Part shown: positions 4,625 through 51,593 of the stretch, in pieces | Layout of the letters: each line of letters starts with the position of its first letter | Position numbering within the stretch: the first letter of the stretch is position 1 | Origin: Bacteroidaceae bacterium | GTDB lineage: Bacteria; Bacteroidota; Bacteroidia; Bacteroidales; Bacteroidaceae | Reading direction: 5' to 3' | Length of the DNA stretch: 64,000 nt | NCBI GenBank assembly: GCA_045660365.1 | Contig: JAZRDQ010000008.1 | Location: forward strand, 72,506 to 136,505 | Program-made: the position numbers and the translations under genes | The notes under the pieces: generated by a model | Database searches by the model: none | Seen by the model: the letters and a program-made list of their open reading frames with translations, nothing else | What the model was told of the DNA's origin: nothing

Positions 4625-6115
4625 CTATTTGAAAAACTTATTTACAAGCGGAATGGACTTTAGTGGTAAATCCGTCTTTATAATGTACCATACATAACAG
4701 ATAAGCAATAGAGTGTTGATACTCAGTTTTAACACAATATTTGTATCCTTGAACAATGTTGAAATTCCCCATAAGACAGCTGCCAATATGCAATAGATAA
4801 AGATCTCTTTCAGTGGGTATTTGACAGGTTCATAATGTTGACCTACAAAATATGATAGCAACATACATACTCCATAACCTGCAAATCCACCCCACGCACA
4901 GGCAATATATCCGTATTTAGGAACAAACAGTATGTTTATTGCTACCAGCACTGTGCAACCAATGAACGAGAAGAATCCACCCCACCAGGTTTTATCGCTT
5001 AGTTTGTACCAGAATGACAGGTTAAAGTAGATACCCATAAAAATTTCTGCTATCATCACTATAGGTATTACCTTTGCTCCGGCACGGTAGTTCGGACCTA
5101 ATATCAGGAGTAGGATATCCAAATAGAAAACAACTGTCAGAAATGCCAGAATCGCAAAGATTATAAAGTATTTCATTGTGTCTGAATACATTTTGTTCTT
5201 TTCGTCTCTGCTCTCTCTTGTTGCACCGAATACCATAGGTTCATAAGCATATCTGAATGCCTGGATAAGCATGCTCATTATCATGGCAATTTTAACTGCA
5301 GCACCATATTCGCCTAACTGTGCCTGTCCTTCCTGCCCTGTTACAAGGTGCGGATAGAGCATCTTGTCGGCCACCTGATTCAGTATGCCGGCCAGCCCTA
5401 AAATCAGTATAGGAAGGGTATATGCAAACATTTCGCGGAATAATTTAGCGTTAAACCCAAACTTCAGTTCTTTCAGTTCCGGAATGAATGCAAGCAGTGA
5501 AACAGCAGAACAGAACAAGTTTATAAGGAAAGCATATAACACCAGATTGTCTGTTTTAAACCAGCCTGCAAATAGCGCAGAATGGGCAAAATATTCAGGT
5601 ATGAAATAGATGAACAGCAAATTAAGCGCTATATTCAGGAATATTATGGCTAATTTTATGCTTGCAAATTTTAGTGGTCTTTTCTGAAGTCTGAGATATG
5701 AGAATATAACAGCCTGGAAAGCATCAAGTGCCACTACCATTGCCATTATACGAATGAATTCCGGGCGGGCAGTAAACTTTAGTACTAGGGAAACAGGTTC
5801 AGTAAACAGGCAGCATGCCAGTGCGAACAGGAATGAAAGTGTACCTACAAAAATTAATGTTGTGGAGAAAACTTTTCCCTTATGAGCACCCTCTTTGTTT
5901 GCGAAACGGAACATTGTGGTTTCCATTCCAAAAGTCAAAAATACCAACAAAAATGCAGTCCATGCATAGAATGATGTAATCTGCCCATATTCAGACTGAT
6001 CTGTAAGAGTACGGGTGTATAGCGGAGTCAACAGGTAGTTTATAAATCTGCCGACAATGCTGCTTATACCATATATTGCGGTGTCTTTGGCCAGTGCGGC
6101 CATCTTGTTTGCCAT
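4625..6115 (-). CDS. MOP-superfamily polysaccharide/oligosaccharide flippase (Wzx/RfbX-like)
   Basis: 496 aa and polytopic (about 12-14 hydrophobic segments). The N-terminus AKDTAIYGISSIVGRFINYLLTPLYTR is typical of polysaccharide biosynthesis flippases. Confidence 0.75.
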   Translation of the reverse strand: MANKMAALAKDTAIYGISSIVGRFINYLLTPLYTRTLTDQSEYGQITSFYAWTAFLLVFLTFGMETTMFRFANKEGAHKGKVFSTTLIFVGTLSFLFALACCLFTEPVSLVLKFTARPEFIRIMAMVVALDAFQAVIFSYLRLQKRPLKFASIKLAIIFLNIALNLLFIYFIPEYFAHSALFAGWFKTDNLVLYAFLINLFCSAVSLLAFIPELKELKFGFNAKLFREMFAYTLPILILGLAGILNQVADKMLYPHLVTGQEGQAQLGEYGAAVKIAMIMSMLIQAFRYAYEPMVFGATRESRDEKNKMYSDTMKYFIIFAILAFLTVVFYLDILLLILGPNYRAGAKVIPIVMIAEIFMGIYFNLSFWYKLSDKTWWGGFFSFIGCTVLVAINILFVPKYGYIACAWGGFAGYGVCMLLSYFVGQHYEPVKYPLKEIFIYCILAAVLWGISTLFKDTNIVLKLSINTLLLICYVWYIIKTDLPLKSIPLVNKFFK

Positions 6116-6134
6116 ACTTTTTCTGTAGTTTTTG

Positions 6135-6142
6135 CAAACTTA
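6135..6142 (-). promoter_or_regulatory. Candidate Bacteroidetes -7 promoter element (TAAGTTTG on the minus strand) for the flippase operon
   Basis: Plus-strand CAAACTTA is an exact TAnnTTTG on the minus strand, about 20 nt upstream of the ATG at 6115. I found no clean -33 TTTG. Confidence 0.3.
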
Positions 6143-6390
6143 CAAAATAATTGGTTAATAATAGCTGTCTGTTGCATTAAATAGGTTGCACTTCTTGGCG
6201 CTATGTCCTAATTGCAGTAAAATTATTTAACAGCTACCGGTTGTAAGTGTTTTTGTAAAAAAAAATAATAGGCATTAAGGTGTTTTTTAATTGATTTTTT
6301 TGCCTAACTTCGTAGCCTTGTTTTACGCATATGCGCATATATGCGCGAGATAGACGAAAGTTGATGTTAAGAAACAAATAGGTAATTAAC

Positions 6391-7710
6391 GTGAGTAAGG
6401 GACAGAACAACATAATAAGTACATTGATTTTAATATTAACCTCTCATTTTGTTGGGTGGGTTAAGGCTGCGCCTATGAGTCCTGATGTGAATTTGGTTTC
6501 CCAGGACTCATTCTACGTTGATTCAGTCTATATTAATCTTTTTGAAAATTCCACCACAGATGTCCTTTTTAAACTGAATGATGAAAAACTGTATGAAGAC
6601 TACAGAGACAATGCTCTGGCGCTGGATAAGTTGCATCGCATATTGGATTCTGTTGATGTTCAGGATGTTCTGGAAGTGGAAATTGTTGTCCAGTCATCTC
6701 CTGAAGGCGTATATCTTCGAAATAAGTGGCTTACAGAGCATCGTACCCAGGTAATAAGTGATTATATGAATAAAAACTGGCCTGTGCTTGCCGGCAGAAC
6801 CACTTTGCATAGTGTAATAGAGGCCTGGGATGATTTGGAATTCTATGTAAATGAGGATACGTTGTTATCAGACAAAAGCAAACAGAGAATTCTGAATGTG
6901 ATTAATCCAAAAGACAGCATCAGTATAGAGACCAAGAAATGGCGTATGGAGAACAGACTGGGTTATGACCCGGCTGTCGGAGCTGTTTACAGATATCTGT
7001 ATCGCAAATATTATCCAGTCCTGAGAGGTGCAGGTGTGCAGATTAAGTACAAGAATCGTAATGTGCAGACAGTGTTTCCAATGGTTGGACTAACTGTAAA
7101 ACCTTTACCTGATAGAATTGAAGAGAGAGAATATCCTGCGGTGGAAGAACCTGTTGTAAGGAAAGAGCCTGTAATAGTTGCGGCTCTTAAGACCAACCTC
7201 CTGTTTGATGCAGCAATGGCTCCGAACGTAACATTGGAGATACCAATAGGAAAGCATTTCTCAATCCATTTTGAGGATATATTTCCATGGTACAGTAACG
7301 GATACAAGCAGTGTTATGAATTATGGGTTATGGGTCCGGAGGTAAGATTTTGGTTCAGAACTCCTGAAAAGCGCAATGAAAAGTTGCGTGGTCATTTTGT
7401 GGGATTATACGGATATGCCGGTCTCTATGACTTCCAGAACTATTTTGATTTCTGTTATCAGGGCGATTTATGGTCAGTGGGCGCAACATACGGATATTCA
7501 TTCCCTATTGGCAAAAAGAAAAAGTGGAACCTTGAGGCTGCAGCTTCAGTAGGTTATTCAAATATCAACTATCAGCACTATTATCCATCACTTAACTATG
7601 ATCGTTTGATTCGTGATGTGAACAAGGTGGGTAGAATAAAATATCTTGGGCCGACAAATGTAAAAGTTTCATTGGTAAGACCAATCAATTTAAAACTTAA
7701 AAGCAAATAA
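6391..7710 (+). CDS. Outer-membrane beta-barrel protein, DUF3575-like C-terminal half with an OmpA-like N-terminal region; first gene of pilus-like locus 1
   Basis: 439 aa with an N-terminal signal-like segment. The OmpA-like block is VQSSPEGVYLRNKWLTEHRTQVISDYM. The C-terminal block LKTNLLFDAAMAPNVTLEIPIGKHFSIHFEDIFPWY...GPEVRFWF...GHFVGLYGYAGLYDF shows an alternating beta-strand pattern typical of DUF3575. It is paralogous to 46475-47779. Confidence 0.65.
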   Translation: MSKGQNNIISTLILILTSHFVGWVKAAPMSPDVNLVSQDSFYVDSVYINLFENSTTDVLFKLNDEKLYEDYRDNALALDKLHRILDSVDVQDVLEVEIVVQSSPEGVYLRNKWLTEHRTQVISDYMNKNWPVLAGRTTLHSVIEAWDDLEFYVNEDTLLSDKSKQRILNVINPKDSISIETKKWRMENRLGYDPAVGAVYRYLYRKYYPVLRGAGVQIKYKNRNVQTVFPMVGLTVKPLPDRIEEREYPAVEEPVVRKEPVIVAALKTNLLFDAAMAPNVTLEIPIGKHFSIHFEDIFPWYSNGYKQCYELWVMGPEVRFWFRTPEKRNEKLRGHFVGLYGYAGLYDFQNYFDFCYQGDLWSVGATYGYSFPIGKKKKWNLEAAASVGYSNINYQHYYPSLNYDRLIRDVNKVGRIKYLGPTNVKVSLVRPINLKLKSK

Positions 7711-7721
7711 GCTGTACGGAT

Positions 7722-8822
7722 ATGAATAGAAGGGCAAATACATTAATGATGTTTCTGATGACGTTAATTCTTTTGACGTCATGTGAATTGCGTCCGCTCA
7801 GCGATCTTAATAAGAATCTGTTGCTGCGTCTGCGTGTTAATCTACAGATACAGAATGTTACTGAAACTCCAAAGGTTGAGGTAATGCGTGTAATTTTCTA
7901 TGATCCCAAAACAAATCGTCGTTTTACAGAAGATTACGTGCCTTCTGAAGGTGGCTACATAAGTGTACCTCCCGGTGACTATAAGCTTATAATCTACAAC
8001 TTTGATACAGAATCAACCCTAATAAGAAATGATGCGCAATTGTATCAGATGGAGGCTTATACCAATGAGATCTCACAGCAACTTAAGAATAAAGCTTTCA
8101 GTGTAATTGAAAGGTCTAAGTCCGAGATAGAAAAGGGTGCCCCATCTCGCAGGGTGCGTACTCGTGCAGAAGGCGACACTCTCAATATAGAAGATGATGA
8201 TATAGTAGGCGATACAATCTCAAATGAAGATAAGGAGTGGGCAGAATCTATGGATGGTATTGAGAATACCAAAATTGTATATGAACCTGATCATCTTTTT
8301 GTGGCACGCGATAATGTTACCATCTTTAACGATGTGGAAGAGCAGGTGGTGGAGGTTGAGGCCGAAACAGTTGTTGAAACCTATTATTTGAGTGTAAGGG
8401 TAAAGAATATCAAGCACATGGCATCAGCAAATGCATTGCTTACAGGCCAGATAGGTTCTAACTTTATTGGCTATCCGAAGGAGGAGGGTAAATCGGACGA
8501 TAATGTATCGCTATACTTTCCGCTTTATGCAGCAACCGATGAAACTGAAAACGATAAGGTACACAGTACATTCAATACCTTCGGTAAAATGCCGGGTAAA
8601 GAGACAAAATTGTGGCTAACCATATTTCTTACTACCCAATCTGGTCAGACAGTAGAATGGCATAAGGATATTACAGAGGAATTCATTGATAATCCTGACC
8701 ATAAGATTGAGATTGAAGAAGATGCAATTATTGTTCCCGATCCTCCTGCAGGCAGTGGTGGCGGTGGTTTCCAGCCAGGTGTGTCAGAGTGGGAAGAGGA
8801 AAATCATTACATAGAACTATAA
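7722..8822 (+). CDS. Lipoprotein, candidate FimB/Mfa2-type pilus anchor (DUF5119-like)
   Basis: 366 aa with lipobox LLTSC. It lies 11 nt downstream of the barrel gene and ends GGGGFQPGVSEWEEENHYIEL. It is paralogous to 48109-49317 (GGGFNASVENWGNEYNASVTI). The family name is recalled from gene context, not from a search. Confidence 0.5.
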   Translation: MNRRANTLMMFLMTLILLTSCELRPLSDLNKNLLLRLRVNLQIQNVTETPKVEVMRVIFYDPKTNRRFTEDYVPSEGGYISVPPGDYKLIIYNFDTESTLIRNDAQLYQMEAYTNEISQQLKNKAFSVIERSKSEIEKGAPSRRVRTRAEGDTLNIEDDDIVGDTISNEDKEWAESMDGIENTKIVYEPDHLFVARDNVTIFNDVEEQVVEVEAETVVETYYLSVRVKNIKHMASANALLTGQIGSNFIGYPKEEGKSDDNVSLYFPLYAATDETENDKVHSTFNTFGKMPGKETKLWLTIFLTTQSGQTVEWHKDITEEFIDNPDHKIEIEEDAIIVPDPPAGSGGGGFQPGVSEWEEENHYIEL

Positions 8823-8834: not shown

Positions 8835-9845
8835 ATGCTAAAGGTATTTAAAAAAATGTCAGTTTTAGGAGTTGCATTGGGAATGTTGTCCTCTTGTGCA
8901 ACGAATGAAACATTTATGCCTGAAACTACAGAAATTGGTTTTAATGCGGTAACAGGTAATGCTACAAAAGCAATATTGTCGGCTGGAACATTACCAACTA
9001 CTGCATCATTTGATGTTTGGGGCTTCTATTCTAACGATGGCTCATTTGCAGAGTTTAGCGATAATTCATTATCAAACTTTATGAGTGGCCTGACAATAGA
9101 GTGGACATCAGGAAATGATGAGAGTCGTCCTGAAGCCTGGCGTAATAAAGAAAAATATTACTACTGGCCAACAACTGGTGTGATAGGTTTCTATGCTCTT
9201 TATCCTTCAGGACTGAATGGAGTACAAAAACCTGAGTTCAAAGGTAGAGGTCTGCAGATAGATGACTACACAATAGACATCACATCAAAGTACACAGACT
9301 TAATGTATGCATACACTATGGGTACAAATCGTACAACTGCATTGCCAATTCAGTTCAAGCATGCTTTATCGCAGATAGAGTTTAAGGTAAAACTTGAAGA
9401 GAACTATCCGGATGTGGAGTTCTATGTAGAAAAGATAGAACTGCAGAATGTTGATTTACAGGCTACATTTAACTATGTACAGCCATCAAGCGTTTCTATA
9501 TGGACAAATAATACTGATAACCAGACAGAGTCGTTGAAATATTCAGATGAATCAATAAAGCTATCTTCTGAAACTCAAGTATATTCTTCGGCTATGGTAA
9601 TGTTGCCTCAACAACTAAGCAAGGCTGATACTGCTGAAACAGCAATCAGCATATTGTATAAAATGGTTCAGGCAGACGGAACAATTATGGATGGAACTAT
9701 GGTGAAAGTTATATCTACTTTGCAACCATCGTGGGAACAAAGTACAAAATATGTATATACACTTAACTTCAATTTGAACGAAATTACATTCAATCCGGAA
9801 ATAACAGACTGGACAGAAATAAGTGTAAACCAGATTATGAAGTGA
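8835..9845 (+). CDS. Fimbrillin-like lipoprotein, paralog 1 (Mfa_like_1-type)
   Basis: Lipobox LSSC. Family blocks: EIGFNAV..ATKA, YYYWP, DLMYAY, FKHALSQIEF, MLPQ, KYVYTLNFNLNEITFNPEITDW. Confidence 0.7.
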   Translation: MLKVFKKMSVLGVALGMLSSCATNETFMPETTEIGFNAVTGNATKAILSAGTLPTTASFDVWGFYSNDGSFAEFSDNSLSNFMSGLTIEWTSGNDESRPEAWRNKEKYYYWPTTGVIGFYALYPSGLNGVQKPEFKGRGLQIDDYTIDITSKYTDLMYAYTMGTNRTTALPIQFKHALSQIEFKVKLEENYPDVEFYVEKIELQNVDLQATFNYVQPSSVSIWTNNTDNQTESLKYSDESIKLSSETQVYSSAMVMLPQQLSKADTAETAISILYKMVQADGTIMDGTMVKVISTLQPSWEQSTKYVYTLNFNLNEITFNPEITDWTEISVNQIMK

Positions 9846-9877
9846 ACCCCAAAAGTTAGACAAAAAACTTTTGGGGT
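9846..9877 (+). terminator. Perfect 12-bp stem-loop directly after paralog 1 (partial terminator or RNA-stability element)
   Basis: ACCCCAAAAGTT (9846-9857) pairs perfectly with AACTTTTGGGGT (9866-9877) across an 8-nt loop. It starts 1 nt after the TGA stop and has no U-tract. Confidence 0.5.
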
Positions 9878-9911
9878 CAGATCAATTAAAGTGCCTTAAA
9901 TAAAAAACAAT

Positions 9912-10892
9912 ATGAAACGGTTTTATTACATTTTGTTAACACTGCTTCCAGCCTTTATGGCTTGTGCAGAGAGAGAGTTCGACTTTGTGCCAGAAGAGAT
10001 TGGATTCAAAGCTGTAACTCGTAACGCAACCAAAGCTAATGTCTTTGGTACAATTGGTACAGCCTATAATGATGTGGAGCATTTTGGCGTGTATGCTTTT
10101 CATGAAGTTTCTGCAGATTCATGGGCTTCGGCTCCATATATGAATAATGTGGAAATAGAAAAAGATACGTTGGACGGATTATGGAGAAATCTGGAGAAGA
10201 AGTATTTCTGGCCATCAGAAGGCAAATTGACTTTTGCATGTTATAGTCCTTATGTGTTTGAAGGAACAGTATCGGCATCGCAAGAAACAGGTATTACAGT
10301 TACTGGATATCTTGCATCGGCAAATGTAAAGCAGCAGATAGATCTTATGGCTTCCGATCTTATAACAGGTTATGATAATAATGTATCGCCAGTTCCGGTA
10401 ACTTTCCGCCATCTGTTGTCGCAGATCAAGTTCAAGGCTCAGAGTAACTTTAACTATTCTGCAGGAACAAATGTGAGTGGCATAACCATAGATAGTTTAA
10501 TAATAGATGGTTTAAATACCAAAGCCGATTATGCTACAACAGACGGCAGACGTGAAAATGGCGCATGGAGTAACTTATCGGACCCAAAGGAGTATTGCGT
10601 GTTGGATAGTGCTGTACAATTGGTTTTAGATGGTAAGAGCCCAGTGGATGTTGGAATACCAATCCTGCCAATTCCTCAGGATATAAGCCAGAGCAATTCT
10701 GTAAAGATTGTATATACCATAACATTTGACAATGGTAGTAAATCTACCGATACCAGATATTTCTCAACTGTTAATGAATGGCAGATAGGATTTATTTACA
10801 CCTATACGATTAAAATAGGATTGAACGAGATTTCATTTGTTCCGAATGTAGAAAAATGGGATTTGGCAAACAATGTTGATGTTGAGATTTAA
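9912..10892 (+). CDS. Fimbrillin-like lipoprotein, paralog 2
   Basis: Lipobox FMAC. Blocks: EIGFKAV..ATKA, KYFWP, DLMAS, FRHLLSQIKF, PIPQ, YTYTIKIGLNEISFVPNVEKW. Confidence 0.7.
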   Translation: MKRFYYILLTLLPAFMACAEREFDFVPEEIGFKAVTRNATKANVFGTIGTAYNDVEHFGVYAFHEVSADSWASAPYMNNVEIEKDTLDGLWRNLEKKYFWPSEGKLTFACYSPYVFEGTVSASQETGITVTGYLASANVKQQIDLMASDLITGYDNNVSPVPVTFRHLLSQIKFKAQSNFNYSAGTNVSGITIDSLIIDGLNTKADYATTDGRRENGAWSNLSDPKEYCVLDSAVQLVLDGKSPVDVGIPILPIPQDISQSNSVKIVYTITFDNGSKSTDTRYFSTVNEWQIGFIYTYTIKIGLNEISFVPNVEKWDLANNVDVEI

Positions 10893-10933
10893 AAAGTAAA
10901 ACCGTAACATATATATAATAAGGAGAAACAATT

Positions 10934-11935
10934 ATGAAAAGAAAGAATATACTGGCAATAGCAGTAGCATCATTAGCAATGATTGCATGTACACAGAATG
11001 AAATAGGTACACCAGAACTTAACGAAGTAGGCTTTAAAGCTGTAGTACGTAAAAATACAAAGGCTATAATAACAGGTACCACTTTTACTGAAAATTTAAA
11101 GTTCAAGGTATGGGGCTTCTATACACAGGAAGGCGATTTTTCAGAGCTGACTGCTGCTGCAGCACCTAACTTTATGAAGGGCGTTGAGATTTCATATATA
11201 GAAAGCGAACAGAAATGGCGCAATGAAACAAACCACTACTACTGGCCAAGCCAGGGTAAGGTTGGCTTCTATGCATTCTATCCTGAAACCTTAACACCAT
11301 CATTTGAATGGGGTACCGGTGCAACAATTGCAGACTATAATCTTACACCAAACAATCAGCTTGTTGATGTAATGTATGCATACAATGTTGGTCCCGATCA
11401 GGCTGCTTTGCCAATGGTATTTAACCATGCACTGAGCCAGATAGAGTTCCGTTATCAGACTAATGCTGCTTACAGCGATGTAACAGTTAAGATTAACTCT
11501 GTAACATTCAAAGGTGTGGATTTGACAGCCGATTTCAACTTTAACGCATCTGCACAGAATGCAACAGCTGAATGGAGCAAAAACACAACTCAGACATCGG
11601 ATTATGTATATTACAACACATTGAGCGATGCAGCTGCAGAAACCGCAACCGGTGCTAATGCTGCAACATACGGTGCACCATTACTGTTTATCCCTCAGGT
11701 GGCATCTGAAGCTGAACTGGTATTCACAGTGTCAATGCTCAATACAGACGACATTACATATACAACAACAATCAACCTTGATCCTGAACTCAGCGCAGCA
11801 AATGCTGCAACAGGCAGTTGGGTTTTGGGTAAGAAATATATCTACACTCTTAACTTTAAGTTAGACGAAATCAACTTTGCTCCAAGTATTACAGACTGGG
11901 TTGATGTAGTGGTAGAGACTATAGACATTGAATAA
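10934..11935 (+). CDS. Fimbrillin-like lipoprotein, paralog 3
   Basis: Lipobox MIAC. Blocks: VGFKAV..NTKA, HYYWP, DVMYAY, FNHALSQIEF, FIPQ, KYIYTLNFKLDEINFAPSITDW. Confidence 0.7.
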   Translation: MKRKNILAIAVASLAMIACTQNEIGTPELNEVGFKAVVRKNTKAIITGTTFTENLKFKVWGFYTQEGDFSELTAAAAPNFMKGVEISYIESEQKWRNETNHYYWPSQGKVGFYAFYPETLTPSFEWGTGATIADYNLTPNNQLVDVMYAYNVGPDQAALPMVFNHALSQIEFRYQTNAAYSDVTVKINSVTFKGVDLTADFNFNASAQNATAEWSKNTTQTSDYVYYNTLSDAAAETATGANAATYGAPLLFIPQVASEAELVFTVSMLNTDDITYTTTINLDPELSAANAATGSWVLGKKYIYTLNFKLDEINFAPSITDWVDVVVETIDIE

Positions 11936-11950
11936 AAAAAAAGACAAGAT

Positions 11951-12997
11951 ATGAAAAAGATTCTTTTGTTGATGAGCACTGCAATGTTACTATTTGCAGG
12001 TTGCGCAAAGGAGGAGCTGACATCAGATCCTCAGGAGATAGGTTTCCGTGCCTATACATTCAAGCAGACCAAAGCTCCTATTGAAGGTGCTGTTTATGGT
12101 GAAACTGATCCAATGTTCAGAGTATTTGCTGCATTGGTAAGAGAAGGAGATTATGCAGTTAAATATGCTTCTTCTGAAAAGTATTTTGAAACAGATGTAA
12201 AATACGATGGTTCAGCCAACTACAAAATCTGGAGACCATGGTCCGGAACTGATTTTATAAAGTATTACTGGCCAATGGAGGGATCTCTGACATTTGTTGC
12301 AGTATCTCCTACTGATGCAACAAGTGCATTTAATAACACAACAGCAACACTTACTGTTACTGATTTTTCATTATCAACAGATGTTGCAGCACAGGCTGAC
12401 TTAATGTATACAAAGATAGCCGATGCTGATAATCTGACTGCAAATACAACTGCATATACAGGTTCAACCAAAAACGGTGTACCAGTAGTGTTTAACCATG
12501 CACTCTCACAAATAAGATTCAAGGCTTATAACAAGGAGGCTGCAGCCAATACAATACAGATTGATAATATTCAGCTGACAAATGTAGCAAACAAGGGAAC
12601 TCTTACAGTTGTTAATGATGCTGTCAGCAATGTTACTCCTTCTGTAGATGGCTGGCTTACAACAACCGACAGCGATGCAGATTTTGTATCTCTTTCAACT
12701 GCAAAAGAAACAACCGGAACAGCTGAAGAATTTGGTCTTCCTGTAATGACGTTGCCTCAGACATTGGCCGATGATATTATGCTGAAGGTTACATATACCA
12801 TGACACATATTAATGGAGAAGATGTTCCGGATACACAGAAAACAGTGTCAAAGAAACTTAGCGAAGTTGTAGGAGCCCAGCTGAATGCAAACAAAAAATA
12901 TACAATTACATTGGGAATTGGTGCCGATGAGATTCTGTTCTCACCAAGTGTAACTGTATGGTCCGATACAGCAGCAGACGAGAGATTTGATTTTTAA
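11951..12997 (+). CDS. Fimbrillin-like lipoprotein, paralog 4
   Basis: Lipobox FAGC. Blocks: EIGFRA..QTKA, KYYWP, DLMY, FNHALSQIRF, TLPQ, KYTITLGIGADEILFSPSVTVW. Confidence 0.7.
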   Translation: MKKILLLMSTAMLLFAGCAKEELTSDPQEIGFRAYTFKQTKAPIEGAVYGETDPMFRVFAALVREGDYAVKYASSEKYFETDVKYDGSANYKIWRPWSGTDFIKYYWPMEGSLTFVAVSPTDATSAFNNTTATLTVTDFSLSTDVAAQADLMYTKIADADNLTANTTAYTGSTKNGVPVVFNHALSQIRFKAYNKEAAANTIQIDNIQLTNVANKGTLTVVNDAVSNVTPSVDGWLTTTDSDADFVSLSTAKETTGTAEEFGLPVMTLPQTLADDIMLKVTYTMTHINGEDVPDTQKTVSKKLSEVVGAQLNANKKYTITLGIGADEILFSPSVTVWSDTAADERFDF

Positions 12998-13024
12998 AAT
13001 AATAATCCTGTAATAGATAAAACT

Positions 13025-14134
13025 ATGAAAAAAAGTATGTTTATAGCTGCAATGGCTGCAATGGTTTTTGCCGGTTGTGCAAAGGATGAATCAATGGTTG
13101 AACCACAGGAGATAGGTTTCCAGCCGGTAGCATATAAGGCTGCTCAGACAAAGGCTAATGTAATTACATCAGCTACATATCCAACAGATGCACCAACATT
13201 TGGTCTGTTTGCTTATCAGTTAACAACAGGTACATTCGATGCAAATAAAGCATCTGCACAATTGTATATAGATAATAAGGAAGTCCGTTATGAAGATAGC
13301 AATTGGCGTACATATCCAAAGAGTTACTGGCCATTGCAGGGTTCATTAACATTTATAGCCTATTCACCATATTCAGAAAACGGTAAGGCTTCACATGAGA
13401 TTACTAATTCTGGAAATTCTGTTTTGACAATAGCAGGTTTCCAGGTTGGTATTACAAAAGAAGAACAGAAAGATTTGATGTGGAGTTATCTTTCAAAAGA
13501 CAAAACTTCAAATGGTACGGAGAATAACTATCCGGAAGCATCACCAACTTATGCAGGTGTGCCAATTCTGTTTAACCATGCACTTTGCCGTATAAAGATT
13601 ACTGCAAAAACTGCAGCAGACTATAGCAGTTTTGCAACATATAAAATAAAGAAGATAGAGGTTGCGAACCTTAAGGATAATGCAACACTGACAGTAACTG
13701 ACGATGTTGCAAGCTGGACAGCTCCAACAACTGCATTGGGTACAGCAAGTGGTAGTGATAAAGTGTTTGATTTCTTTGCTCCAGGTGCCGAAGCAAATTA
13801 CGTAACATTGAATTCTACTACTGCATCTGCAGTAAATTATAAGAGCGAAGAGGCTACAGGCAATGGTCTTTTGGCAATTCCTCAAACACTTGATGCAAAC
13901 GTGAAGTTGTTGGTAACATACACTATGACAGTAGATCCTGATGGTGCAGGCATTGCTCCTGCTGTTGTTACTGAGATTACAAAGCCTGTAACATTAAATA
14001 CACAATTGGCTTCATTGGAGCAGAATAAGGTTTACACATTGAATCTGAGCATCTCTGCAAACGAAATTCTCTATTCACCAGATGTTATTGACTGGACTCC
14101 ACAGGGTGCAGAATATGCAGTACCAGAAGTATAA
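13025..14134 (+). CDS. Fimbrillin-like lipoprotein, paralog 5
   Basis: Lipobox FAGC. Blocks: EIGFQPV..QTKA, SYWPLQGSLTFIAYSP, DLMWS, FNHALCRIKI, AIPQ, VYTLNLSISANEILYSPDVIDW. Confidence 0.7.
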   Translation: MKKSMFIAAMAAMVFAGCAKDESMVEPQEIGFQPVAYKAAQTKANVITSATYPTDAPTFGLFAYQLTTGTFDANKASAQLYIDNKEVRYEDSNWRTYPKSYWPLQGSLTFIAYSPYSENGKASHEITNSGNSVLTIAGFQVGITKEEQKDLMWSYLSKDKTSNGTENNYPEASPTYAGVPILFNHALCRIKITAKTAADYSSFATYKIKKIEVANLKDNATLTVTDDVASWTAPTTALGTASGSDKVFDFFAPGAEANYVTLNSTTASAVNYKSEEATGNGLLAIPQTLDANVKLLVTYTMTVDPDGAGIAPAVVTEITKPVTLNTQLASLEQNKVYTLNLSISANEILYSPDVIDWTPQGAEYAVPEV

Positions 14135-14169
14135 TAAGTTTAAATTGCGAATAAATAAAACAGAAAAAT

Positions 14170-15192
14170 ATGAAAAAGAGTCTATTTTTAGCAGCTATTG
14201 CTACCATAGCATTAGCAAGCTGTACTCAGAATGAATTAACTGTTGAGAGACAGGAGATTGGTTTCTCACCATTGCAGTATAAGGCCGTAAATTCAAAGAC
14301 TATAATAACAGGTAACAAATATCCTTCAAGCCTTCCTTTTGGTTTGTATGCATACCATACTGATGGAACAAACAATAAAGTGTATATAAATAATGCAACC
14401 TGTTCATATGATGAAACAGCTAAAACCTTTGTTTCTAATCCGGTTGCATATTGGCCATTGTCAGGTTCTTTAGGTATGGTTGCATGGTCACCAAAGACGA
14501 TTGCCGCTACATATGAATTAGCTAACAAAAAATTAAGTGTACCATTTGTGGCAGCAGGCAGTGAAGCTAATCCAGTTGATTTAATGTATTCAACTCCATT
14601 ATCTGGATTGGACAAAACTAAACAAACAGTAAATTATGCACCTGAAGATGGTAGTAGTGTTACTGGTGGTGGTGCAGGTGTTGGTATTACATTTAACCAC
14701 GCACTATCTCAGATTGTAGTAAATGCAAAAGTGGCAGATACCTATACAGGTGCAGATTATAAAATTACAGGATTGTCTCTTCAAGGTATGGACGATAATA
14801 ACACTCTGACTGTAACGGAGGCTGCAAGTCCGGTAGCATCCTGGGGAACTGCTTCAGTCAACAATGCAACATTCTCTATCTTTAGCGGCACTACTGAAAC
14901 TTTAGTCACAGGAGGTGCAGATGTAGGTTCTGCAGTGTTGGTTATCCCACAAGCGTTGACTGCAAGTAAGCAAAAGTTGGTGGTAGCTTATCAGATGACA
15001 TACAATGGAGTTACAACATCTACAAGCAGGGATGTTTTCCTGAATTCAGGTGCATCACCATTAACAGCATTGGCTATGGGTAAGAAATATACATTAAACT
15101 TAACCATTTCTGCTGATAAGATTCTGTATTCACCTTCTGTTGCAGAAGATTGGGATACAACTACACCTGCAAAGGATTACGGAGTACAGTAA
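14170..15192 (+). CDS. Fimbrillin-like lipoprotein, paralog 6
   Basis: Lipobox LASC. Blocks: EIGFSPL..NSKT, AYWPLSGSLGMVAWSP, DLMYS, FNHALSQIVV, VIPQ, KYTLNLTISADKILYSPSVAEDW. Confidence 0.7.
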   Translation: MKKSLFLAAIATIALASCTQNELTVERQEIGFSPLQYKAVNSKTIITGNKYPSSLPFGLYAYHTDGTNNKVYINNATCSYDETAKTFVSNPVAYWPLSGSLGMVAWSPKTIAATYELANKKLSVPFVAAGSEANPVDLMYSTPLSGLDKTKQTVNYAPEDGSSVTGGGAGVGITFNHALSQIVVNAKVADTYTGADYKITGLSLQGMDDNNTLTVTEAASPVASWGTASVNNATFSIFSGTTETLVTGGADVGSAVLVIPQALTASKQKLVVAYQMTYNGVTTSTSRDVFLNSGASPLTALAMGKKYTLNLTISADKILYSPSVAEDWDTTTPAKDYGVQ

Positions 15193-15363
15193 TTGCAAAG
15201 AGACTTATAGTACAAGCATTTTACAGAAGAATGCAGAAAGAATATTGATGTTGATTTTGGATGGACTTATGCCGATGAGGTTAGTAAATGACTAATTAAT
15301 TCGTAAAGTCAAGCCAGAAGGCATCAGAAGTCAGTGTAATAAAAAAGTATAAAAGTAAAAGAG

Positions 15364-16470
15364 ATGAATAGGATGTGCAATAGATATTTTAGACTAATAG
15401 TGTTGTTTACAACAATGCTATTGGTGGTGTCGTGTACATTGGATAAACCGGAACCACTGGACAGAAAGGAGAGTATGTCATTCCAGCCGGTAGTAAATAT
15501 GTCACGTACATCGAAAGCAATAATCCAGGGCACAGAATATCCGGCAGCTGAAAGTTTCTTTGTTAGCGCATACTATTATACTAACAATGCCGATGCTCAG
15601 CCACATACAACCTATATCAATAAAAATGAAGTAACCAGAAACGGAACAGTGTGGAGTACCACTACAGATTACTACTGGCCATTGTCGGGCTATATGGATT
15701 TTGTAGCATATTCACCAGGCAGCGTAAATGCTGAAATTGATAAAGATGGAGTAAGTATCCGGAACTTTGGATATGTAATTGATACTCCGGAAAAGACAAG
15801 GGTGGATTTCATGTACTATAAAACAGATGAAAAAGTTTCCTGTGCAACACATCCATCTGCTGTAGGTGTTACATTTAAACATGCGCTTACTCAGGTTGCA
15901 TTCAAAGTGGAACCACAAGCGTATTACACAACAACGGCTGCTGACGGCACAACAAACCAGGTTACCATAACAGTAGATAAGATATCGTTGAAGAACATCT
16001 ATTTTAAAGGTAGCTTTAATCAGAACGCAACCCCTCAGTGGGATGTTTACGATGAAGAGGATCAAAAGATCTATCATGATGCATGTCTGACAAACTACGC
16101 TTTATTGAACAAGGATTCAGGCCATGGAACTGAATTAAAGTATGATGGAGAAAATCCAAAGAGTGTTCCTATTATGCTGGACCAGAACACAGAACTTGCA
16201 GCACTGCTGATTCCGCAAACGTTGAATCAGAATGCAGCGCTCGATGTAACATACTCTGTTACTCAAAAAACAACAAAAGGCGATAAAGTAATAGTAGAAC
16301 CATATACTATCACTTTCAATAACTCAATTCTCATTCAGGGTAATCCACAACAGGTACTTCAGATGGGAAAGAAACTGGTATATAATATTCGTATTGGCCT
16401 TGACGCTATATCACTGGAAGCAACATACGGTGACTGGTCGGGCAACGAAGAGAATGTTGAACCACAATAA
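15364..16470 (+). CDS. Fimbrillin-like lipoprotein, paralog 7 (first gene after a 171-nt gap)
   Basis: Lipobox VVSC. Blocks: MSFQPV..TSKA, YYWPLSGYMDFVAYSP, DFMYY, FKHALTQVAF, LIPQ, LVYNIRIGLDAISLEATYGDW. Confidence 0.65.
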   Translation: MNRMCNRYFRLIVLFTTMLLVVSCTLDKPEPLDRKESMSFQPVVNMSRTSKAIIQGTEYPAAESFFVSAYYYTNNADAQPHTTYINKNEVTRNGTVWSTTTDYYWPLSGYMDFVAYSPGSVNAEIDKDGVSIRNFGYVIDTPEKTRVDFMYYKTDEKVSCATHPSAVGVTFKHALTQVAFKVEPQAYYTTTAADGTTNQVTITVDKISLKNIYFKGSFNQNATPQWDVYDEEDQKIYHDACLTNYALLNKDSGHGTELKYDGENPKSVPIMLDQNTELAALLIPQTLNQNAALDVTYSVTQKTTKGDKVIVEPYTITFNNSILIQGNPQQVLQMGKKLVYNIRIGLDAISLEATYGDWSGNEENVEPQ

Positions 16471-16475
16471 TTGGT

Positions 16476-17534
16476 ATGAGAAGATTTAGATACATATATA
16501 ATTGTACTTTGTTATTGGCAGTATCTCTGTTAATGGCATTGTCAGTATCGTGCAGTCGGGAAGATATAGACTTTTCGGAGAAGATTCCTATATCATTCAC
16601 AAGTAGTGTGGATAATTCAACAAAGGCATTGATAAGTGATGTTGCGGGTATTCAAACTACTGGATTTGGAGTAACTGCATATATAAATCAGAACAGTTCA
16701 TGGTTACCGGTAATGAATAACCAGAAGGTAGTTTATTCTGGTGGTAAGTGGGGATATTCTCCAGTATCATACTGGTCAAAAAATGATAGCTACACTTTTG
16801 CAGCTTATGCTCCTTATGGTTCTGCAACAGTTAATCTTAGTGTAGCAACAATGACGTTTGCTGATGTTCCCCGCTATCAGAATGTAATGACAGATGCAGA
16901 AAAAGCTAATGCAAAAGATATATTGACCGATGTAAAGAGTGGTTCATACAACAGCGAATTCAGAAATGGTGAAGTGCAGTTTGAACTGAAACATGAACTT
17001 GCTTATCTGGAAATCCGTGCAGTTAAGGCAGATATTGCAAGCATGAGAGATGTTACGTTTAAAGTAGCATCCCTTACATTGGGCGATGCACAGGATAAAA
17101 TGGCATCAACTGGTAACTGCACTTTTGTTAAAGGTATTCTGGATAATAATAAAACTACCTGGGGTACTACATCTTATACAGGCGATGGTAAATATACAAT
17201 AATAGGCTCTCTTTTGGATACCCCAATTCCAAATGAAGTTGATAAAAATCCATTGGTTTTATCACAAATGCTTATAGCCCCATTTGAATTTGGTGGAACT
17301 GAGGTTTCTCATAGTCTGCCATTCAATATTAGGTATAATAAGAATGATGGTAAAAATACTCCTTCAAACCACGATATTAAAGGTCATGCTATTACAATTA
17401 AAAAGTTTGAAGCGGGTAAAAAATATATAGTAACACTCAGATTCAACACAGCATCCAAGGTTGAAATAAATACAGTGGTGGTAGAGGACTGGACTGCAGG
17501 CACAACTTACGAACCTCCTGTATTTAACTGGTAA
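16476..17534 (+). CDS. Fimbrillin-like lipoprotein, paralog 8 (divergent)
   Basis: Lipobox SVSC. Blocks: ISFTS..STKA, SYWSKNDSYTFAAYAPY, FELKHELAYLEI, KYIVTLRF...VVVEDW. Confidence 0.6.
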   Translation: MRRFRYIYNCTLLLAVSLLMALSVSCSREDIDFSEKIPISFTSSVDNSTKALISDVAGIQTTGFGVTAYINQNSSWLPVMNNQKVVYSGGKWGYSPVSYWSKNDSYTFAAYAPYGSATVNLSVATMTFADVPRYQNVMTDAEKANAKDILTDVKSGSYNSEFRNGEVQFELKHELAYLEIRAVKADIASMRDVTFKVASLTLGDAQDKMASTGNCTFVKGILDNNKTTWGTTSYTGDGKYTIIGSLLDTPIPNEVDKNPLVLSQMLIAPFEFGGTEVSHSLPFNIRYNKNDGKNTPSNHDIKGHAITIKKFEAGKKYIVTLRFNTASKVEINTVVVEDWTAGTTYEPPVFNW

Positions 17535-17547: not shown

Positions 17548-18597
17548 ATGAACAGATATATTGACAAAATATTCGGAAAGTGGTTACTACTAGCGCTGTT
17601 TATGGTGCTGGCAGTGGGCTGTGCACAGGAATTCGATGAATGGGATAATGGTGTAAAGATAGAGTTTACTACACCTCATCTGCAGGATTTACAGGTAGAG
17701 ACCAGAGCAGTTTCAGGATATAGTGGAACCATATCCGGTAGTTCAAGCATGGGTGTTTTTGTTAGGGGAATTGTGAATGAAAGTACCATTACTTACAATG
17801 GCAGCAGCTGGGAATCGTCACTTAAACTGGATCCTGCTACATATAATATCTATTCATACATACCAAAGCGTAGCGGTGTGTCATTTAATGCAACAGGCAG
17901 CTACCCTGTAATCACTTTTACAGACGTACCATTTATAACAGATCAGGAGATACTTATCTCTTCCGGTGCAGTAGCAGAAACAGTTACATCAGATGGCGGT
18001 GTTTTTACTCCAAACGACATAACTGGCAGCTTATCTAAAAACAGTTATTCAATACGGGTAGAATCGAAAGAGAACTCCAGGAACTATGTAACCTTTATGA
18101 TGGACAGGGTTATGGCAAAGGTAATCCTGAACTTTAAAGTTCACAGCAAGTATGATGCAATCAGAACTGTAAAGATTAAGAAGGTAACATTGCAGCCAAC
18201 CAGTATTGTTGATATAGCATGTACATTAACCGATAAGGAGATAACATATCAGGGAAGTTCCACACAGTCAGCAACCTTATCTCCATTGGTGTATGACCAT
18301 AGTGGATTTGAGGTAGAAACTGATGCTGATGATGCAAATCCATTTGCAACATTCTATAGTGTACCTGGTGTTGAAAGTACAGTTAAGATGACAGTGGTTT
18401 ATGATGTTTATGATAAGTCGGGTACTTTGATTCGTGCCGATCAGGAGGTTACCAATGCATCAATCAAACTAATAGAATCGGGTACGTTACAGCGTGCCAA
18501 AGAGTATAAACTGAATATAAATATTGTGCCAACATATCTCTATTCTTTAAGCGATACAGATAAGGAAAGTGTTATGTTGATACAGTACAGTAATTAA
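17548..18597 (+). CDS. Fimbrillin-like lipoprotein, paralog 9 (most divergent; possible adaptor or tip-type subunit)
   Basis: Lipobox AVGC. Blocks: IEFTT...ETRA, MDRVMAKVILNF, EYKLNINIVP. It lacks the YYWP block and the terminal EIxFxPxVxDW strand. Confidence 0.5.
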   Translation: MNRYIDKIFGKWLLLALFMVLAVGCAQEFDEWDNGVKIEFTTPHLQDLQVETRAVSGYSGTISGSSSMGVFVRGIVNESTITYNGSSWESSLKLDPATYNIYSYIPKRSGVSFNATGSYPVITFTDVPFITDQEILISSGAVAETVTSDGGVFTPNDITGSLSKNSYSIRVESKENSRNYVTFMMDRVMAKVILNFKVHSKYDAIRTVKIKKVTLQPTSIVDIACTLTDKEITYQGSSTQSATLSPLVYDHSGFEVETDADDANPFATFYSVPGVESTVKMTVVYDVYDKSGTLIRADQEVTNASIKLIESGTLQRAKEYKLNINIVPTYLYSLSDTDKESVMLIQYSN

Positions 18598-18610: not shown

Positions 18611-21600
18611 ATGAATATATCCACAAATAGAAAACAGAAAACTTTGTTGGCAAGGGTACTCCGTCCACTCCTGCTTACACTGTCTGTTGTATGCAGCATG
18701 CCATTGCAGGCGCTCGTAATTAAAGGTGATGTGTATGGTGGCGGAAAGGAAGGTATGGTAGGTGTAGAAGGTACTCCTGCTCAGACCGATGTGGATATTA
18801 ATAGTGGAGAAGTTCGCACAGTATTTGGTGGCGGACAGGACGGAAAAGTGTATGGAACTACATCTGTAGATGTAACTGGTGGAACTATTGGTGCAGAAAA
18901 GTTTAATGGTTCCTTATATGGAGGTGTATATGGTGGTGGCGAAGGTGCTGAAGCTACAGTATTTGGTACTGCAAATGTAAATATGACAGCTGGCACTGTT
19001 GTGAATAATATATATGGCGGTGGTAAGATGGCTGCTTTACAGGGTAATACCAATGTTAAGATTTCTGGCGGTACAGTATCAGGATCTGTGTTTGGTGGTG
19101 CATGTATGGCAGATATTCAGGGCAGAACATACGTATGGATTAATGGTGGTGCTGATGCACTGAACATCGGCGCTGTTTATGGCGGTAACGATATATCTGG
19201 TAATGTATCATCCTATCTTTCAGTTGTGACCAACCCATATACTATACCTGTTGCAGCTATAGCAAATGATGACAACTGGAAAAACTGGAATGCCTTTGTA
19301 AGGGTAACCAAAGGGGCAGGAGAAGTAAATATAGGTTCATTGTATGGCGGCGGTAATGGTGATTATGGTTATGTTGGCACTGAAGGTAACTATTCCATTA
19401 CCTTGAAGGATTTTGCTCCGAATGGCACTGAAACAACAAGAATTCTTACAGTATCAAACAGACCAACATTGGGCAGAGTGCTTGTAGATGTTACAGGTGG
19501 AACATTCAATGCTATATATGGTGGCGGTAATAATGCAACAGTAACATTTTCTACCGATATATATCTTAATGGTGCAAATCTGACTGCAACAAATGTATTT
19601 GGTGGTAACAATAAGGCTGTAATGGCTATTCGCCCTACATGGCACCTGCATGATGCTACTATCACAAACCTCTATTCCGGAGGTAACCGTGGTGATATGA
19701 CCAGCCCGTCAGGTTTGTTACTTGCCATAGAGAGTGCATATCTGACCATAGAAAATGTGTATGGTGGTTGCCGTATGGCAAACGTATCTCCAACTGCTAC
19801 TCCAGGTGCAGAAACATATACAGCAACTGGCGGTAAATCTATCAGCTTCGATGGTGGATATGCAGCCCGCGTCTATATAGGTGGCGGTAAGGTTAAGAAC
19901 GTTTATGGTGGTAATGATATATCCGGTAAGGTGAATTATGGTGCAAACGTAGAGATATACAGTTCAATATCCGGCAGTATATATGGTGCGGGTAATGGTG
20001 CTTATCTTTATACTGACAACCCGGCCAATTCTTCATCTGATTTGTATTATATAAAAGGTGGAAATTCAGTTGCAGCACTATATGATTATCGTCCTCAGGT
20101 GGAAAAGACACTGTTGCATATTGCAGGTCCGGTAAATGATGATGGCACTCCAACTGAAAATCCGTTATATGTAGCAGGAAATGTGTTCTGTGGTGGTAAC
20201 TCAGCTCCACTAAAATCGGATGATACAAACGCAACCACTCAGTTCCGTATAGGTAAGAATGTTGTCATCAATGGTGTCTTCTTAGGTAGTAATGGAGAAC
20301 AGATGGTAGATCCTGAAGTTCTTAAATACTATGCTGATAATGCAAACTCTTCTATTGATTTGACTGATTCAGACCAGATGAAAGGTTATATGGATGGTGT
20401 ATCTGTCAACCTTAAACCATCTTTCTCCGTAGATTGGAAAGAGGAATTAACTCCGGACCAGACAGGAACATATATCGGTTCGCTCTATTTAGGCGGTAAT
20501 GTTGGTAGTTTAACTGCAACAGAGCAGATAGATGTAACTATTCCATCTTCAATCACCATTTATGAAAAGATAGTAGGTGGATCCAACAATGCTATTGTTG
20601 CTGCGAATAGTGGAATTAATGCGGAATATGTAGGTGGTGTAACAGAAACATCTTCTGGTGACTACAAACTGAAGATGACTGTTGCCAGCAGAATGGAACC
20701 TAAAACTCTGAATGCAACACTGGATGGTGAAGGTTATGTAACATCAGCATCGCTTGTCTGGAAAAAGTCAGCACCATCTGGTCTGGCGGAAGAAATTATT
20801 TCTGGTGCTAACATTTATGGTGGTTGTTATCAGAGTGGTGTAGTGAATGGTAATGTAATAATTGATGTAACTGATAATCTTATATCACAGAATATTATCT
20901 CTAAAAATCTCCATAAATATAATAGTGGTAGTACTGCGATAGGTGAATATGTATTTACCAATGCTATTTCTGTATTTGGTGGCGGTTATGGTGCAAACTC
21001 TACTATTAATGGTAACACTACCATCAACCTGAAAGAAAATGCTCAGGTGCTGAAGGTATTTGGAGGTGGTGAATTAGGTGCTGTAACAGGTAATACTTCT
21101 ATTAATCTGGATAAGAACCTGAAACAGCCTGCGGAAGGATTTTATAATGCATTTAAGGTGTATGGTGGTGGCTTGCAGGGTAATGTAGGCGGAACAGCAT
21201 CTGTTAATGTGCAGGGCGGTAAGTTCTTCGATGTATTCGGTGGCAGCTGTTTTGCTGATATTACCGGAACAGCAAAGGTTGTTATTGGTTCAGCAGAATC
21301 AGTGGGCAGCCAGACCCCATTGCTTATTGCTAACAACGTGTATGGAGCTAACGACTTTGGTGGAACAATTGGCGGTTCTGTAAGTTTTGGTCAATTAGCT
21401 TATGGTGGTAAATATGTGATGGCTCAGACAATGGTTCAGTACATATCGGGCGTTATTAATGGTAATATCTTTGGTGGCGCTAATGGTGCTTACGATTACG
21501 CATGGCAGTTCAGTAAAATCAATATGGAGGGAAAATATCCATTGTTGAATAAAGAGATAACTGAAAATAATGCATCATTTATAACCTCTAACACATTTGT

Positions 21601-43750: not shown

Positions 43751-43783
43751 AACTGAGGCAGGGATTATTTCCTTGCCTCAGTT
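43751..43783. terminator. Hairpin between the convergent esterase gene and AraC-type regulator 1
   Basis: AACTGAGGCAGG (43751-43762) pairs with CCTTGCCTCAGTT (43771-43783) with one mismatch. The right arm encodes the last codons of the regulator. Confidence 0.5.
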
Positions 43784-46229: not shown

Positions 46230-46262
46230 CCTGTTAAAATCAACGGAAATACATTTTGTATG

Positions 46263-46270
46263 CAAAAGTA
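46263..46270 (-). promoter_or_regulatory. Candidate -7 element (TACTTTTG on the minus strand) for the AraC-type regulator pair
   Basis: Plus-strand CAAAAGTA is an exact TAnnTTTG on the minus strand, 34 nt upstream of the ATG at 46229. The -33 element is imperfect. Confidence 0.35.
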
Positions 46271-46474
46271 TTAATAATCTTTAAATTAACAATGTTGTGA
46301 TAGTGTATTTTTTAATAATTTGCAATTTGTGTTTTATGAATTGCGCTAAAATTTACGAATTTAGCTAAGGTGTGCCACCTTATTTATACATAATGCGATA
46401 AAATATATATAACCATTCGTAAATGTTATTAGTGAAATTTTAGAACTTTGCGGAGTGAACTGAATAGTCTTAAT

Positions 46475-47779: not shown

Positions 47780-47809
47780 GCGGAGTATTTTGTATTGAAT
47801 GAATTTATA

Positions 47810-47860
47810 CATCGGCATAGGTACCCTATGTTGATGCCTTGTCTTTTTGTTCTTTGTTTG
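47810..47860 (+). terminator. Hairpin plus T-rich tract after the locus 2 barrel gene
   Basis: CATCGGCATAGG (47810-47821) pairs with CCTATGTTGATG (47825-47836), including two G-U pairs. CCTTGTCTTTTTGTTCTTTGTTTG follows. Confidence 0.5.
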
Positions 47861-48082: not shown

Positions 48083-48108
48083 CATCGTAATCGATTGCAA
48101 AAAACAAA

Positions 48109-51583: not shown

Positions 51584-51593
51584 ATAATTTAAT

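Follow-up and report, generated by a model that had tools for sequence, protein, structure and literature searches.

A 64,000 nucleotide stretch of a Bacteroidaceae genome (assembly GCA_045660365.1, contig JAZRDQ010000008.1, positions 72,506 to 136,505), here called the window, carries two type V pilus loci (locus A and locus B) which are headed by the same pair of genes. The first gene is predicted to code for an outer-membrane protein in which the two modules of OmpA and OprF stand in reversed order, the second for a lipoprotein of the FimB/Mfa2 anchor class. We propose, tentatively and with a probability of roughly 0.45, that the first protein is a tether dedicated to the pilus, which links the outer membrane with the cell wall and on which the anchor pilin docks. 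Among the adhesive fibres of gut and oral Bacteroidales, type V pili are the principal ones. Their retention and building at the outer membrane are still partly unexplained, and the surface sorting of pilin lipoproteins is described as unknown in the passages of PMC13655056 drawn upon here. A preliminary description of the window had reported that both loci open with the same two genes in the same order, and these were confirmed as open reading frames (ORFs; lengths in amino acids, aa):

6391-7710, + strand: head gene of locus A (P0001), GTG start, 439 aa, OmpA-like domain and DUF3575.
7722-8822, + strand: anchor-class type V pilin of locus A (P0002), 366 aa, 11-bp gap after the barrel gene, lipobox LTSC, C-terminal strand GGGGFQPGVSEW.
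46475-47779, + strand: head gene of locus B (P0003), ATG start (the longest ORF begins with TTG at 46448), paralog of 6391-7710, OmpA-like domain and DUF3575.
48109-49317, + strand: anchor-class lipoprotein of locus B (P0004), 402 aa, 329-bp gap, lipobox FTSC, C-terminus GGGFNASVENW.

The two head proteins are paralogs with 33% identity over 395 aa (BLASTP, E 3e-56). Both carry the motif SSPEGxxxxNKWLTExR, and both have the DUF3575-like C-terminal half that had been recognized at the outset: Pfam assigns PF12099 (DUF3575, cut-off 21.1 bits) to aa 264-429 of P0001 (E 4e-32, 111.4 bits) and to the C-terminal half of P0003 (E 1.2e-18, 67.4 bits). When hidden Markov models (HMMs) of the two domains were built, P0003 was matched with E 1.5e-56 by the N-domain and with E 5.4e-48 by the barrel. 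A profile search returned the two head genes as the only DUF3575 matches in the window's genome, which is 1.98 Mb in size and 86% complete. None of the four proteins of the two pairs was assigned to a family by NCBIfam. The AlphaFold2 (AF2) model of P0001, computed from a 60-sequence alignment, has a predicted local distance difference test score (pLDDT) of 83 and is divided as follows:

aa about 1-26: N-terminal helix, read as a signal peptide.
aa about 46-222: putative periplasmic OmpA-like domain, modelled as a confident alpha/beta fold, with the SSPEG...N..L...R motif and a helical insertion.
aa 231-256: linker, disordered in the model.
aa about 260-435: DUF3575 barrel, predicted, about 8 strands and about 175 residues.

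The C-terminal part of the model (residues 262-432) is equally close to OmpW (8qxp, Z 12.4) and to the N-terminal barrel of OprF (4rlc, Z 12.4, 131 of 135 residues aligned) in the VIA comparison. Further matches are NspA, CarO and the barrel of OmpA, so that Z-values of 10-12.4 are reached across 8-stranded barrels. The N-terminal part (residues 46-222) matches the OmpA-like domain of Acinetobacter baumannii (3td3) with Z 12.9 and a root mean square deviation of 2.5 Å, 119 of 120 residues being aligned. The OmpA-like domains 3td3, 5u1h and 4rha all score between Z 11 and 13, and other fold matches of this part are OprF-C, Pal, TagL, MotB and PorE-C. Foldseek and VIA concur on both domains. The head proteins are thus predicted to have a small outer-membrane barrel of about 8 strands, formed by DUF3575. 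The earlier reading of the first protein as a barrel with an OmpA-like domain agrees with these predicted folds.

Profiles of the head family also match the C-domains of OprF, RmpM and OmpA, with E-values from 4e-5, obtained for 5u1h (the OprF C-domain), to 9e-3. Six residues are invariant in 60 homologs (S103, P104, E105, N111, L114 and R118), and HMMER places the Asn, Leu and Arg of the motif on their counterparts in OprF, with R118 at the position of the peptidoglycan-binding Arg. The homolog P0110 carries a precomputed match to PF00691, the OmpA family of Pfam. A protein atlas search with the N-domain gave OmpA labels of low share (11-13% of the members, scores 0.90-0.91). According to the model, the N-terminal domain is a non-canonical OmpA-like fold with an insertion of about 55 residues. 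As in OmpA and OprF, an 8-stranded barrel would be combined with an OmpA-like domain in which the N..L...R part of the motif is kept. Unlike OmpA and OprF, the window protein has the reversed domain order and the insertion, its gene is linked to a pilus operon, and there are deviations in the domain itself (Asp replaced by Ser103, no Pfam OmpA match), which are weighed below.

The second gene of the pair was assigned to the DUF5119 family in both loci. P0002 matches DUF5119 with E 2.6e-24 and also Mfa2 (E 1.3e-7, 32 bits at a cut-off of 21.2), and P0004 matches DUF5119 only (E 3.8e-11). These are the only two DUF5119 matches in the window's genome. The two proteins belong to the same Pfam family, and their likeness in BLASTP is weak and confined to the C-terminus (E 1e-3). 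In an alignment of 48 anchor homologs the residues G349, F350, V354 and W357 are invariant and the lipobox cysteine C21 is nearly so; P0004 shares the invariant columns. The lipoprotein with a conserved GGG(G)F...V(S/E)xW C-terminus, which had been described before, was thereby recovered with a lipobox cysteine in both copies. A profile of the 48 P0002 homologs matches 5cag (BACOVA_02677) with E 1e-26, and the AF2 model of P0002 (pLDDT 84) has its best Foldseek matches in 5cag, 3pay, 3gf8, 4qdg and Mfa2 (5nfi). Three of these, 3pay, 3gf8 and 4qdg, are compared with Mfa2 as anchor proteins in a section of Hall et al. 2018 (PMC5789003), and the same section describes a conserved Trp before the C-terminal tail of anchor pilins. 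In the proteins studied here, this Trp sits in GGG(G)F..V..W.

The FimB/Mfa2 anchors (5nfi, 3pay, 3gf8, 4qdg) and 5cag resemble the second gene product in being lipoproteins of two beta-sandwiches with a conserved Trp near the C-terminus. The second gene product differs from FimB and Mfa2 in its DUF5119 subfamily, in the GGG(G)F motif, in an acidic insertion at aa 146-154 of P0002, modelled with low confidence, and in being encoded second in the operon. Family, profile and fold matches support its assignment to the FimB/Mfa2 anchor class as a DUF5119 subfamily, and the earlier view of it as anchor-like is upheld. P0002 and P0004 do not have the (T/S)(K/R)A motif which is carried by the neighbouring fimbrillins, and the lack of such a site would fit an uncleaved, lipid-anchored terminator. 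The F..V..W of their C-termini is common to the C-termini of fimbrillins.

The distance between the two genes differs in the two loci. The gap in locus B (47780-48108) has 329 bp, compared to 11 bp in locus A, and the inverted repeats in it are all short and AT-rich. A phase-variable promoter was looked for by scanning 6050-6450, 46200-46520 and 47740-48150 for inverted repeats, which gave short AT-rich pairs only, none of them convincing.

The preliminary description had called for a check of whether DUF3575 genes co-occur with fimbrillin genes, and such a co-occurrence was found. A sample of 150 genomes spread over the order Bacteroidales, together with the window's own genome, was searched with Pfam families. 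DUF3575 occurs in 57 of the 151 genomes and DUF5119 in 15. There are 22 DUF5119 matches outside the window's genome, and 16 of these have DUF3575 directly upstream on the same strand, one has it at 5 kb and five have none. We then took all 55 DUF3575 matches with E <= 1e-17 outside the window's genome, called ORFs and compared up to four downstream ORFs on the same strand with Pfam. Proteins of at least 300 aa were counted as long forms. All of the 18 long forms are encoded directly before genes of type V pilus families, and the two genes often overlap or lie very close together (-8 to +40 bp). The 55 loci are distributed as follows:

18 long forms: the next gene is DUF5119 in 12, a weak Mfa2 match in 3, Mfa_like_1 in 1 and DUF6562 in 2.
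5 short forms: directly before DUF5119.
32 other short forms: 15 with pilin genes within four ORFs, 14 with none, 3 at a contig end or without a Pfam match.

A scan of named genomes gave 579 relatives among 602 matched stretches, of which the best 80 were examined with HMMs built from the window proteins and their relatives. The fused N-domain is present in 79 of these 80 loci. Downstream sequence of 900 bp or more is available for 76 of these 80 loci; an ORF that matches the anchor HMM comes next in 57 of them, another 15 have fimbrillin matches beyond a gap of some 1 kb, and four have none, so that type V pilus genes follow in 72 of the 76. These 80 loci are the top matches to the query family and are therefore not independent of the query. 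They are mostly labelled as gut and rumen metagenome-assembled genomes, from Bacteroidaceae, Alistipes/Rikenellaceae, Cryptobacteroides, Muribaculaceae and others.

Six loci (L062, L067, L106-L108 and L123) carry labels from Firmicutes (Acetatifactor, Ruminococcus, Butyricicoccaceae, Acutalibacteraceae, Faecalibacillus) on a locus of Bacteroidales type, which probably reflects faulty binning or labelling and not gene transfer. In two other loci (L025, L028) the long-form barrel is followed by DUF6562 instead of DUF5119 or Mfa_like_1. One of these DUF6562 proteins also weakly resembles Mfa2 (E 2.5e-5), and DUF6562 may be another pilin-like family.

The OmpA-like module was frequently found in a gene next to the barrel gene. 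An N-domain HMM made from aa 45-225 of P0001 was searched against the 55 DUF3575 loci. The barrel ORF itself contains the module in 10 loci, the ORF right after it does so in 25, and in one locus the module is encoded further down the operon. The next ORFs that carry it code for proteins of about 360-740 aa with the architecture DUF3868-OmpA-TPR (tetratricopeptide repeat) or CarboxypepD_reg-OmpA. Residues 48-224 of P0001 have 31% identity to one such neighbour, the insertion included (BLASTP, E 8e-18), and the N-domain matches another with 94% probability (hhalign). The order of the split arrangement is short DUF3575 gene, DUF3868-OmpA-TPR gene, stalk pilin and Mfa2 anchor.

This split order matches the published arrangement of fimX-pgmA in Porphyromonas gingivalis and of BT1066-BT1064. 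Xu et al. 2010 (PMC2954217) described a conserved BT1066/65/63/62 cluster in which BT1066 is homologous to PGN0178 (FimX), and BT1064 to PGN0179 (PgmA). Gupta 2007 (PMC1887533) assigns PG2131 to OmpA/COG2885 and gives one paralog for PG2130 (FimX). Two DUF3575 proteins, with accession numbers adjacent to that of FimB, are listed in tables of W83 outer membrane vesicles (PMC12937337). FimX itself may be a DUF3575 protein, as can be read from these papers, since two DUF3575 proteins occur in the W83 vesicles, FimX has one paralog and BT1066 is homologous to PGN0178. The comparison made here is with the DUF3575 and DUF3868-OmpA-TPR pairs of Bacteroidales genomes rather than with the P. gingivalis proteins themselves.

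FimX (PG2130/PGN_0178) and PgmA (PG2131/PGN_0179) resemble the window pair in heading a type V pilus operon, with their genes co-transcribed with pilin genes (PMC2430334). PgmA is annotated with an OmpA domain (PMC1887533), and it fractionates with the outer membrane according to a section of PMC3436787. Compared to FimX/PgmA and the BT1066/BT1064 type, the window protein fuses the OmpA-like part, which comes first, with the barrel, and DUF3868 and TPR are absent. In addition, the anchor gene precedes the stalk genes in the window loci, whereas the stalk gene precedes the anchor gene in fim and mfa. The fused-versus-split pattern joins FimX-like and PgmA-like head genes into one functional unit with the shape of an OmpA in reverse.

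That head genes are linked to pilus operons has been published before, as have the names FimX and PgmA. The single-polypeptide, reversed-OmpA form directly before a DUF5119 anchor, and the fused-versus-split relation, we did not find in print. In the literature searched, DUF3575 is mentioned in four papers, in tables only and with no function given, while DUF5119 appears in one unrelated paper, again with no function given.

Five of the loci with a short DUF3575 (L022, L023, L026, L035 and L042) continue with proteins of 670-1117 aa in which the OmpA-like module is present, and these cassettes have no pilin genes. CarboxypepD_reg is found in the proteins from L022, L023, L026 and L035, while that from L042 has no Pfam match. 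In L022 and L023 a further protein of 941-959 aa is encoded downstream, with OMP_b-brl in L022.

The domain composition, the predicted folds, the conserved gene order and the relation of the fused form to the split pair of DUF3575 and DUF3868-OmpA-TPR are the observations from which we infer that the head protein would bind peptidoglycan, contact the anchor pilin and have a mechanical role. It would stand at the pilus base, with its OmpA-like domain holding the cell wall and its barrel in the outer membrane, and it would dock the lipid-anchored anchor pilin, thereby providing a load-bearing foot for the fibre. The anchor lipoprotein would stay in the outer membrane and donate the GGGF..V..W strand at its C-terminus to the final stalk subunit. 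The barrel would not be a pore for pilins. If this tether proposal is wrong, the pair is a conserved accessory of unspecified role.

Complex modelling of barrel and anchor, as had been recommended in the preliminary description, gave a score of 0.58, while the best of three controls reached 0.07; this is weak support, and no interface was returned. At least 34% of the contacts agree between runs, with a pLDDT of 75 or more for the partner. In the benchmark, 116 of 157 solved complexes and 2 of 215 mismatched pairs came up to the mark, and these counts hold only roughly here, as the prediction used custom alignments.

Several points weigh against the tether proposal. A score of 0.58 lies in a range (up to 0.60) which contains only 18 of the passing solved complexes and both of the passing mismatches; a pass in this range would more often be wrong than right unless the guess is already likely. 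The synteny figures given above are raw counts without a null model. The module is not exclusive to pili, as pilin genes are absent from the surroundings of 14 of the 32 other short forms, and in the five short forms directly before DUF5119 the N-domain HMM found no OmpA-like module in the locus. In P. gingivalis, according to the portion of PMC3436787 consulted, adding fimX and pgmA neither changed nor promoted fimbriation. As to the cell wall contact, the canonical peptidoglycan-binding Asp (of 'TD') aligns to the invariant Ser103, with an invariant Glu105 two residues on, and neither P0001 nor P0003 matches Pfam OmpA (PF00691) at E <= 0.1. We take it from the A. baumannii OmpA literature that the Asp and Arg pair binds diaminopimelate in OmpA-like domains. 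Peptidoglycan binding by the N-domain is unproven because the Asp is replaced by Ser103 and there is no Pfam OmpA match. Membership in the canonical OmpA family was considered and rejected, as there is neither a Pfam OmpA match nor an NCBIfam family.

The first alternative is that the head protein stabilizes the envelope in general, as an OmpA-like protein co-expressed with surface-lipoprotein traffic and without physical link to the pilus. The short forms without pilin genes speak for this, some of them lying beside CarboxypepD_reg/OmpA and giant multi-barrel proteins, and so does a stand-alone protein with the OmpA-like module and TPR repeats in the window's own genome. On the other hand, the position of all 18 long forms directly before pilus genes, often with overlaps or short gaps, speaks against it, and the complex score far above the controls points in the same direction, with the weak support already stated. 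We consider this alternative unlikely. The stand-alone protein just mentioned is the third one with the pilus-type OmpA-like module (E 2e-17) in this genome. It also has TPR repeats, is encoded at C13:14287-16002 on the - strand (L055:5285-6973) and adjoins dprA and an integrase gene; neither a barrel nor pilins are encoded next to it.

Alternatively, the head genes might mainly regulate pilus expression, as has been proposed for the FimR cascade via PG2130 in P. gingivalis. In excerpts of three papers that cite Nishikawa 2004 (PMC1974823, PMC2430334, PMC3436787), FimR is stated to bind the pg2130 promoter and not that of fimA, and fimA transcription to be lower when fimX or pgmA is lost. This drop may be a polar effect, because pg2130, pg2131 and fimA share one polycistronic mRNA (PMC2430334). 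The window proteins consist of exported membrane or periplasmic modules in which Pfam, AF2 and VIA found no DNA-binding or signalling domain, and separate AraC-type regulator genes are located upstream of locus B. Regulation as the main role thus seems quite improbable to us.

The pair could also be more than a foot. A DUF3575 barrel with an OmpA-like module, fused or split, might be a dedicated station for the surfacing and polymerisation of pilins and hence the missing outer-membrane biogenesis factor of type V pili. The anchor pilin would be held over a fixed point of the cell wall, and the station would perhaps flip or position the lipid anchors of pilins. According to portions of Nagano 2012 (PMC3436787), a P. 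gingivalis mutant that lacks the entire fim cluster regains long fimbriae when fimA is supplied by itself. P. gingivalis has paralogs of the fimX/pgmA head genes (PMC1887533, PMC2954217), and such redundancy would mask a loss, which is how this reading accommodates the dispensability. We nevertheless regard it as very unlikely.

Some barrels of the OmpW type carry hydrophobic molecules. A related idea is that the barrel is a helper of surface exposure, which positions the lipid anchors of the pilin lipoproteins. Circumstantial points in favour are the sorting mechanism described as unknown in the part of PMC13655056 cited at the beginning and the first position of the gene in operons with up to 11 lipoproteins. 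An essential role is opposed by the P. gingivalis genetics, as far as reported in the quoted portion of PMC3436787, and many pilin genes and loci have no such barrel, so that we assign this idea a very slight chance.

An usher-like device for assembly or translocation was rejected on account of barrel size and P. gingivalis genetics and is hardly credible: a barrel gene in first position, its conserved synteny with pilin genes and the sorting gap described in the cited part of PMC13655056 would suit it, while the barrel is predicted to be of the 8-stranded type (OmpW, OprF-N, NspA and CarO, Z 10-12.4), fimA alone gives fimbriae without the fim cluster in the consulted part of PMC3436787, and the window's genome has a solo fimbrillin gene on contig C20 without a barrel beside it. 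With about 8 strands the window barrel would not be an usher-like pore. The only likeness to FimD and PapC, the ushers of chaperone-usher pili, is that an outer-membrane barrel is encoded in the pilus operon; ushers are large pores, whereas the window barrel has about 175 residues and about 8 strands next to an OmpA-like domain. FimD and PapC are 24-stranded pores with plug and periplasmic domains, and the lumen of 8-stranded barrels is too narrow for a folded or unfolded pilin. From the platform that had been suggested earlier, anchoring therefore remains plausible but unproven, while assembly or translocation does not fit an 8-stranded barrel and the dispensability of fimX and pgmA stated in that part of PMC3436787.

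The other genes of the two pilus loci are:

8835-17534, + strand: eight stalk-like fimbrillin paralogs of locus A, all lipoproteins, six of the eight matching Mfa_like_1.
17548-18597, + strand: last small lipoprotein of locus A, with an ETRA site, without the C-terminal W motif, no Pfam match.
18611-30016, + strand: giant ORF closing locus A, 3801 aa, with a start 13 bp behind the last of the small pilin-like genes.
43765-46265, - strand: two AraC-type helix-turn-helix (HTH) genes upstream of locus B and divergent to it, Pfam HTH_18 and HTH_AraC.
49343-55110, + strand: four Mfa_like_1 fimbrillin genes of locus B (Pfam), the last of which (53236-55110) is without the C-terminal W motif.

The anchor gene of locus A is thus followed by nine genes for proteins of about 340 aa, six of them with Mfa_like_1, and then by the 3801-aa ORF. 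The fimbrillins of this locus have a C-terminal (N/D)EIxFxPxVxxW motif, for which the sequence suggests a donor-strand role. They also have an N-terminal EIGF(K/R/S)A...T/S-K-A motif about 20 residues past the lipobox Cys. We regard EIGF...TKA as a candidate cleavage site for a maturation protease specific for Lys/Arg. In both loci, the small lipoprotein gene that comes last (17548-18597 and 53236-55110) is devoid of the F.P.V..W motif that is common to the other paralogs. Mfa4 and Mfa5 have no donor strands, as stated in a portion of PMC13655056. Since the C-terminal W motif is absent as in Mfa4 and Mfa5, the two proteins are candidate tip subunits, which would need no donor strand. The two AraC-type genes are candidate regulators.

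No Pfam match was obtained for the giant 3801-aa protein, neither with the whole protein nor with its first 500 or last 120 aa. Its last 55 residues or so weakly resemble the type A sorting domain of type IX secretion (T9SS; TIGR04183, E 7.7e-4), with 19.4 bits and so without reaching the cut-off of 23. By analogy, the protein may be a tip adhesin exported by the T9SS and comparable to Mfa5.

Loci A and B contain 10 of the 11 Mfa_like_1 matches of the window's genome. The remaining, solo fimbrillin is encoded at C20:111871-112923 on the + strand (L056:2884-3927), with no barrel, anchor or other pilins beside it. A protein with CarboxypepD_reg and OMP_b-brl_3 is encoded 1.7 kb downstream.

One locus of the order-wide sample (L038:1980-6490, from G122:C10) has a long-form barrel and a weak-Mfa2 anchor, followed by a protein with Mfa_like_1 and an FGE-sulfatase fold, an HRDC protein and a reverse transcriptase. 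Its gene content resembles that of a diversity-generating retroelement directed at the pilus tip, of the kind described for Bacteroides (bioRxiv 10.1101/2024.11.15.621889).

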